Assembly: GCF_044324785.1 (NCBI RefSeq)
Contig: NZ_CP172127.1
DNA: 64,000 bases
Source: Escherichia coli
GTDB taxonomy: Bacteria; Pseudomonadota; Gammaproteobacteria; Enterobacterales; Enterobacteriaceae
Reading direction: 5' to 3' (one strand)
Shown: positions 31,589 to 32,850 of the stretch, one piece after another
Position numbering within the stretch: the first letter of the stretch is position 1
How the letters are laid out: each line of letters opens with the position of its first letter
Program-made: the position numbers and the translations under genes
The notes under the pieces: generated by a model
Database searches by the model: none
Told to the model about the DNA's origin: nothing
The model's input: only the letters and a program-made list of their open reading frames with translations

Positions 31589-32850
31589 ATGTCTTTAAAC
31601 GATTCTAAAATCCGCAAGTTAAAACCCTCTTCCCGTCCGGTAAAACTCTCCGACTCTCACGGTCTGTATCTGCTCGTCAATCCGGGCGGTTCACGCATCT
31701 GGTATCTCAAATATCGTTTCAACGGAAAAGAATCCAGAGTCAGTCTTGGCGCATACCCGCTTGTCTCACTGGCAGAAGCCAGGCAACAGCGCGACGGTAT
31801 CCGTAAGTTACTGGCGCAGAATATCAACCCGGCGCAGCAGCGCATGGCGGAGAAAGCGGCCTGCTCCCCTGAAAAGTGCTTTAAGGCAGTGGCGCTGGCC
31901 TGGCACAAAACCAACAAAAAATGGTCGGCTGATTATGCCGCCCGTATTCTCGCCAGTATGGAAAACCATATCTTCCCGGCGATTGGTCATCTGCCAGTTG
32001 CCACTCTTAAAACGCAGGATTTACTGCTTTGTTGCGGGTTATCGAGGATAAAGGCTTTCTGGAAGTCGCGTCCCGAACCCGGCAGCAACTCAGCAACATC
32101 ATGCGCTATGCCGTTCAGCAGGGGCTTACCGAAAGCAATCCGGCGCAGCATCTGGATGGCGTTGTCGCCTCACCCGTAAAGAATCACTACCCCGCGTTAC
32201 TGCTGGAGCGGTTGCCCGAACTGCTTGGCCGCATCGGTGACTATCAGCAGGGCCGGGAGTTAACACGGCTGGCGGTGGTGCTGACGTTGCACCTGTTTAT
32301 CCGTTCCAGCGAACTGCGTTTCGCCCGCTGGAGCGAGATCGATTTCAGGCACAAAATCTGGACCATCCCCGCCACCCGCGAGGCAATCGACAAAGTACGG
32401 TTTTCGGGGCGTGGCGCAAAAATACGTACCCCGCATATCGTGCCGCTCTCCCGCCAGGCGATTGCCATTCTGAAACAGATACAGGAGCTTTCCGGCCATC
32501 TGGATCTGGTGTTTCCCGGTGATCATAACCCGTACAAGCCAATGAGTGAAAACACCACCAACCGGGCGCTACGCCTGATGGGGTATGATACGAAAACTGA
32601 AATCTGCGGGCATGGACTCAGGGCGATGGCCTGTAGCGCCCTGGTGGAATCGGAGCTGTGGTCACGCGATACGGTGGAGCGGCAAATGAGCCACCAGGAG
32701 CGTAACAGCGTGCGGGCAGCCTATGTGCATAAAGCGGAGCATCTGGAGGCCAGAAAGGCCATGATGCAGTGGTGGTCGGATTATCTGGATGTGTGCCGCG
32801 AGGGGTATGTTGCGCCGTACATTTATGCCCGGCAGCATAAGGCAGCCTGA
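31589..32850 (+). pseudogene. P4-family tyrosine integrase, disrupted by a frameshift near nt 32030
   Basis: N-terminal part (MSLNDSKIRKLKPSSRPVKLSDSHGLYLLVNPGGSRIWYLKYRFNGKE..) is in frame 2 (ORF 31487..32179); the catalytic part (..RFSGRGAKIRTPHIVPLSRQA..HGLRAMACSAL..RAAYVH..) is in frame 1 (ORF 32029..32850). Confidence 0.85.

Follow-up and report, generated by a model that had tools for sequence, protein, structure and literature searches.

The window, a 64,000-nucleotide stretch of the Escherichia coli chromosome, covers the asn-tRNA cluster, where ldtA, asnV, nac, cbl, asnU, yeeO, asnW, a genomic island, yeeN, amn and shiA are followed by a GT9 gene, a yeeJ-like gene with Ig repeats, asnT, mtfA and serU. 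Strain N3 (NZ_CP031609) is the closest complete genome, with 99.6% identity to the window over 31 kb. The tRNA-Asn genes and the repeats that bound the island lie at the following positions.

27119-27194, - strand: asnV
29528-29603, - strand: asnU
31352..31427, + strand: asnW, tRNA-Asn (GTT), between yeeO and yeeN, the integration target of the island (ARAGORN; Rfam tRNA; annotated neighbors in N3)
31412..31431, + strand: attL core, left copy of the 20-bp direct repeat CCAGTCAGAGGAGCCAAATT, made up of the last 16 nt of the tRNA plus 4 nt
41956..41975, + strand: attR core, right copy of the 20-bp direct repeat CCAGTCAGAGGAGCCAAATT
57228-57303, - strand: asnT

The two repeat copies match exactly over 20 bp and delimit an element in the 3' end of asnW that measures 10,544 bp from one copy to the other. 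Of 5,426 complete E. coli genomes, 5,281 contain an uninterrupted match to a synthetic empty-site junction, and the boundaries of the island are set on the basis of this empty site and the direct repeat. Insertion into a tRNA 3' end, flanking direct repeats and a site that is empty in other genomes are the marks of a tRNA-associated integrative island, and in its position in an asn tRNA and its short direct repeat the element resembles other asn-tRNA islands. Both att repeats are intact in the window. A 9-mer comparison of the two island arms for arm-type Int binding sites returned one shared word and no repeat set.

The gene adjoining asnW encodes, in two frames, the parts of a tyrosine integrase, which are arranged as follows.

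31589..32850, + strand: P4-type tyrosine integrase, predicted pseudogene of 1262 nt (1263 nt in intact alleles), identified from ORFs, Pfam and alignment, and 'frameshifted' according to PGAP in N3, ST2747 and Z142-2
31589..32020, + strand: codons 1-144 in the native frame, covering the arm-type DNA-binding domain and the first half of the core-binding domain (PF13356 at residues 3-87, PF22022 at residues 98-148)
32021..32023, + strand: the lesion, codon 145 TTC (Phe) without its C between 32022 and 32023, now TTA (pairwise and multiple alignments with six intact-length alleles)
32024..32179, + strand: the rest of the 52-codon out-of-frame tail, which starts at codon 145 (32021); stop at 32177-32179
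32023..32850, + strand: residues 146-420, covering the second half of the core-binding domain and the catalytic domain, unreachable from the native start (Pfam; alignment with P4 Int and intact alleles)

A first-pass annotation made from the sequence alone had described a P4-type integrase whose two parts occupy different frames overlapping at 32029-32179, and both ORFs are indeed present on the + strand, at 31487..32179 (with the true ATG at 31589) and at 32029..32850. In Pfam, the first ORF matches Arm-DNA-bind_3 and profile positions 1-52 of Phage_int_M, and the second matches positions 52-95 of the same profile and Phage_integrase. The Phage_int_M domain is severed exactly at the frame change, and the E-values of its two halves (1e-11 and 1e-9) are not those of chance matches. 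The arm-type DNA-binding domain (PF13356, residues 3-87) is present with an E-value of 3.9e-25, and the N-terminal domain matches the N-domain of a CP4-like integrase in the PDB (3jtz, E 2.9e-35), where the relatives found are isolated N-terminal and core-binding domains only. Also present are the central core-binding domain PF22022, with profile position 52 of 96 marking its division between the frames, and the catalytic domain PF00589 (E 6e-17); in NCBIfam the integrase is hit only below threshold by a domain model (231 bits against a cut-off of 434). When the frame is repaired, tblastn aligns 98% of the query with phage P4 Int at 49.5% identity (E 6e-127), and R239, K278, H342, R345, H369 and Y379 align with the P4 enzyme. 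These six catalytic residues are all encoded beyond the shift, out of the native frame. The three-domain architecture is that of phage P4 Int and of the P4-like integrases of other E. coli asn islands (HPI at asnT; pks at asnW, asnV or asnU). Homology to P4 Int, the adjoining asnW and the 20-bp repeat together bear out the earlier assignment of the gene to a P4-type integrase of a tRNA-associated island.

Comparison with intact homologues, which the first-pass annotation had proposed as a check, reveals a single missing base relative to six intact-length alleles. The only gap in the global alignment is a C, the third base of codon 145, such that the window reads GATTT^ACTG (GATTTACTG) where the intact form reads GATTTCACTG. 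Restoring this C gives a clean 420-residue ORF with no other stop or defect, in agreement with the earlier claim that a single-base indel accounts for the split. The frameshift itself was correctly recognized, although its position, given as near 32030, is about 7 nt from the lesion at 32022/32023; the string that had been quoted for it does start at the lesion, at 32021. As a result of the 1-nt deletion, the uninterrupted frame of P4-type integrases is absent here and a stop follows after 52 out-of-frame codons. Having lost one C from codon 145, the gene would yield 144 correct residues, 52 wrong ones and a stop, that is, a predicted product of 196 residues from the native start, and the catalytic domain would not be made. 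On these grounds the gene reads as a pseudogene of the arm-binding, P4-type tyrosine integrase family that has all sequence features of the family except an intact ORF.

Two arrangements in which the integrase would nevertheless function were considered. A programmed -1 ribosomal frameshift or transcriptional slippage that restores the full-length integrase would suit the overlap of about 150 nt between the two ORFs, the second of which is in the -1 frame relative to the first. There is, however, neither an X XXY YYZ heptamer nor a long A/T run at or near positions 32021-32029 (CAG GAT TTA CTG CTT), and protein homology runs without a break right through the site of the missing base. Moreover, homologues both near-identical and more distant, phage P4 Int included, are all encoded by a single uninterrupted ORF. 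Given the lack of a slippery site and a two-frame layout that is not conserved among these single-ORF homologues, we rejected recoding, which we regard as extremely improbable. Alternatively, the gene might work in two pieces, as an N-terminal arm-binding fragment and a C-terminal fragment translated from the TTG at 32029. This TTG opens a 273-residue ORF that contains all of the catalytic residues, an AGGA lies 9 nt upstream of it at 32016-32019, and the C-terminal frame has no further damage. Such a division would, however, cut the core-binding domain mid-way, at position 52 of 96 in the Pfam profile, and the youth of the mutation, given that its carriers are 0-2 SNPs apart, explains the undamaged C-terminal frame equally well. 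To our knowledge there is no precedent for a split arm-type integrase, and we consider a functional two-part enzyme very unlikely.

The remaining question is whether the base is missing from the genome or only from the assembly, and the distribution of the deletion among other genomes bears directly on this point. An exact 73-mer that carries the deletion is present in 49 of 5,426 complete E. coli genomes, and the exact intact 74-mer of the same allele is present in 22 genomes of this set; the number of carriers is at least 49. Many projects, laboratories and countries are represented among the carriers listed, whose sources are human, pig, chicken, cattle, swan and wastewater. The 60 best matches to the repaired gene comprise 44 with a span of 1262 nt and 16 with a span of 1263 nt. 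RefSeq (PGAP) applies the label 'frameshifted' in all three of the carrier records that we opened (N3, ST2747 and Z142-2), which are independent assemblies. In strains 1190, PCN033 and 19KM1831, PGAP annotates the protein as intact (WP_000055678, WP_000055679 and WP_000055680). In addition, a synonymous SNP 27 nt upstream of the deletion, A rather than C at 31996, is found in five of the five deletion-bearing sequences compared, which include the window, N3, ST2747 and Z142-2; position 31996 is C in all six intact-length alleles aligned, and none has A. N3 is identical to the window across the integrase gene, and the carriers compared differ by 0-2 SNPs within it.

A sequencing or assembly error in a gene that is really intact would have in its favor that single-base indels are the commonest type of assembly error, that an intact allele of 99.8% identity exists, and that the window is not error-proof, having at 35573 one additional, private G that four relatives lack. 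Against this, the missing C (GATTT-C-ACTG) lies outside any C homopolymer, the same deletion recurs in 49 complete genomes from unrelated projects, it travels with a SNP (31996A) seen solely on deletion-bearing alleles among those compared, and N3, the closest genome, has the same sequence over the whole gene. The sequencing error that the first-pass annotation had allowed for does not hold up against the identical deletion in 49 complete genomes, the linked SNP, the PGAP label and the intact form in 22 genomes, and the chance that the gene is in fact whole seems minute. We conclude, with a probability of roughly 0.93, that the deletion is a genuine inherited loss-of-function mutation of the island integrase. 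Because SNP 31996A is common to all of the deletion-bearing sequences compared, the data argue for a single origin of the deletion, on the allele that this SNP marks; the lesion is also likely to be young, since the carriers are 0-2 SNPs apart and the rest of the ORF is undamaged. The mutation would thus have arisen once and recently, and would now be present in about 1% of sequenced E. coli. The frameshift is already recorded in RefSeq annotation, and it represents ordinary integrase decay with nothing that departs from known biology.

The other contents of the island include a second recombinase, two RNA motifs and an Rhs module.

34188..34795, - strand: second recombinase, a frameshifted and shortened pseudogene (Phage_int_SAM_2 and Integrase_1; Pfam; 'frameshifted' in PGAP)
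34851..34978, - strand: EFASI RNA motif, immediately upstream of the second recombinase (Rfam RF02957, 100.8 bits, gathering threshold 51.2)
35713..35901, - strand: HTH_35 winged-helix gene, 62 residues (84 residues in intact-integrase strains; Pfam profile positions 1-58 of 75)
35898..36359, - strand: hypothetical gene of 153 residues, intact here and frameshifted in 1190, PCN033 and 19KM1831 (1-nt difference at 36099)
36413..36501, - strand: C4-type antisense RNA, upstream of the 153-residue gene and the HTH_35 gene (Rfam RF01695, 62.2 bits, gathering threshold 45)
36546-36598, - strand: a1/b1- or isrK-like target element (RF03163, 43.8 bits, below the gathering threshold of 46.7)
36881..41062, + strand: RHS element core protein, 1393 residues, intact, with a variable C-terminal tip after residue 1254 (NCBIfam NF041261, 2592 bits)
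41119..41667, + strand: TPR protein directly downstream of rhs (weak TPR matches; PGAP name)

Between the two recombinase genes, at 32851-34187, is an AT-rich stretch (38% GC) of 1.3-1.36 kb with no annotated gene. It contains two direct repeats of 131 nt each (33052-33182 and 33280-33410), which are 73% alike and 228 nt apart, and Rfam gives no match within 32851-34187. The second recombinase has internal indels relative to strain 1190. It is intact, at 294 residues, in two strains whose P4-type integrase has a stop, TUM9812 and F637, and broken in the window and the other strains examined, except in one of two copies in LST200A. A literature search for the EFASI motif returned only unrelated work on OMV sRNAs. 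The C4 RNA and the target-like element (36413-36598) resemble an immunity cassette of the P1/P7 type. The extra G at 35573, absent from N3, 1190, PCN033 and 19KM1831, could be a private mutation or a base-calling error; downstream of the HTH_35 gene is a GC-rich inverted repeat (35566-35610), and the G falls within its left arm. In Pfam, the RHS protein matches RHS_repeat, RHS and, at its N-terminus, DUF6531. The TPR gene is a putative immunity partner of Rhs, to judge from its position only, and sister islands bear other Rhs tips, for example one with an NTF2-fold immunity protein. The presence of Rhs genes on genomic islands has been noted before (PMC2935791). Our literature searches for an Rhs island at asnW gave only work on pks and HPI and a general Rhs paper, with no description of this element.

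The island with an intact integrase, found in 1190, PCN033 and 19KM1831, occupies the same asnW site and has the same gene order and Rhs/TPR cargo as the window island. The two forms are 99.4-99.8% identical from asnW to 34.5 kb and about 98.3-98.8% identical over the rest of the island; the intact form has the C at codon 145, a 420-residue integrase and an 84-residue HTH_35 protein, and it is the 153-residue gene that is frameshifted there. The deletion is one of several lesions in the window island, others being those of the second recombinase and the HTH_35 gene, and the island appears to be decaying around a still-intact Rhs toxin cargo.

Given the domain content of the predicted product, it is reasonable to infer that the island is fixed in place. 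With the integrase encoded in cis lost and its catalytic domain absent, no self-excision is expected, and the island could presumably no longer excise or integrate by its own enzyme. Since the att repeats are both undamaged, what the island lacks is the enzyme alone. In N3, a single locus matches the integrase down to about 72% nucleotide identity, and this strain therefore lacks an HPI- or pks-type paralogue that might complement the loss. Over the 3-kb backbone flank at 28340-31351, next to asnW, the window differs from ST2747 and Z142-2 by 49-54 SNPs and from one intact-allele strain by 14, so that its flank groups with the intact-allele strain and not with two of the other three deletion carriers examined. 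Among most strains the first 4.5 kb of the island (31352-35851) differ by 0-12 SNPs, and diversity among strains is about 1.7% in the flank versus about 0.25% in the island, a difference of about seven times. The deletion-bearing island thus sits in divergent flanking backgrounds.

A related integrase allele extends these observations to other asn-tRNA genes. This sister allele, at 95% nucleotide identity, has an old nonsense codon, TAG, at codon 177 (Q177), and the exact 71-mer that bears it is present in 266 of 5,426 complete genomes. Four copies were located.

20001-21263 of the extracted locus, TUM9812: sister TAG allele at asnT
20001-21263 of the extracted locus, F637: sister TAG allele at asnV
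19507-20769 of the extracted locus, LST200A copy 1: sister TAG allele at asnV
10121-11383 of the extracted locus, LST200A copy 2: sister TAG allele at asnT

The two TAG-allele islands of LST200A lie next to different Rhs modules, each with its own tip and immunity gene. The integrase family is present in 442 complete E. coli genomes, of which at least 266 have the shared nonsense codon and 49 have the deletion; in complete E. coli genomes it is, to judge by these lesions, mostly dead. The only open ORF among four 95% alleles examined is that of the O145:H28 strain 12E115 (at asnT; 3001-4263 of the extracted locus). Its GHGLKAM has Lys where the window (GHGLRAM) and P4 (GHGFRTM) have the conserved catalytic Arg II. 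An open integrase frame may therefore not equal an active enzyme. A second class of integrase loci, which we take to be the HPI and pks integrases, has about 72% nucleotide identity to the window gene and is found in more than 2,000 E. coli genomes.

The use of several asn copies by this integrase family parallels what is reported for the pks island, in that P4-like integrases of the asn region use several asn tRNA genes (PMC8209727). Unlike the HPI and pks islands, the window island is small (10.5 kb), contains an Rhs toxin module and not siderophore or colibactin genes, and has a broken integrase ORF. The HPI of E. coli is itself immobile, its right direct repeat having been deleted, and is fixed at asnT (PMC8209727); immobilization by loss of one component is thus a known pattern in the asn region. 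Similar to the immobilized HPI, the window island is an asn-tRNA island that is widespread yet probably without the means of site-specific excision. The component lost is nevertheless different, since the HPI has lost the substrate attR, and the window island keeps both att repeats and has lost the enzyme. Spread of the HPI in E. coli has been shown to proceed by homologous recombination of flanking DNA (PMC2606025; PMC8209727), and the combination of low island diversity and high flank diversity seen here fits spread of the island with flanking DNA by the same route.

The presence of the sister allele at several asn sites and the divergent flanks indicate that death of the integrase has not confined the island family to one site or lineage. 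Inactivation in cis may therefore not mean immobility, as islands with a dead sister integrase are found at more than one asn tRNA gene. The TAG allele could have reached these sites by mobilization in trans, by gene conversion between copies or by recombinational spread. More generally, loss of the integrase in cis might leave Rhs-carrying asn-tRNA islands mobile, or able to be copied from lineage to lineage and among asnT, asnV and asnW. Such movement might rely on a P4-like integrase that acts in trans and has the asn att core in common, on the second recombinase of the island (Integrase_1 type) or on homologous recombination. In addition, the arm-binding fragment of 144 residues that is retained could modulate related integrases. 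The basis for continued movement of islands with dead integrases is a set of side observations with several mundane explanations, and we consider it unlikely.

A pseudogene is the best annotation for the integrase, and the island is best described as a probable non-autonomous remnant, in which useful cargo, namely the intact Rhs toxin and its neighboring gene, is kept while the mobility genes decay. Retention of cargo alongside decay of mobility genes is the textbook path of genomic island domestication. The deletion has little importance beyond correct annotation. At the level of the family, a mostly dead set of integrases at three asn tRNA genes would provide a natural set for studying how islands with dead integrases spread.
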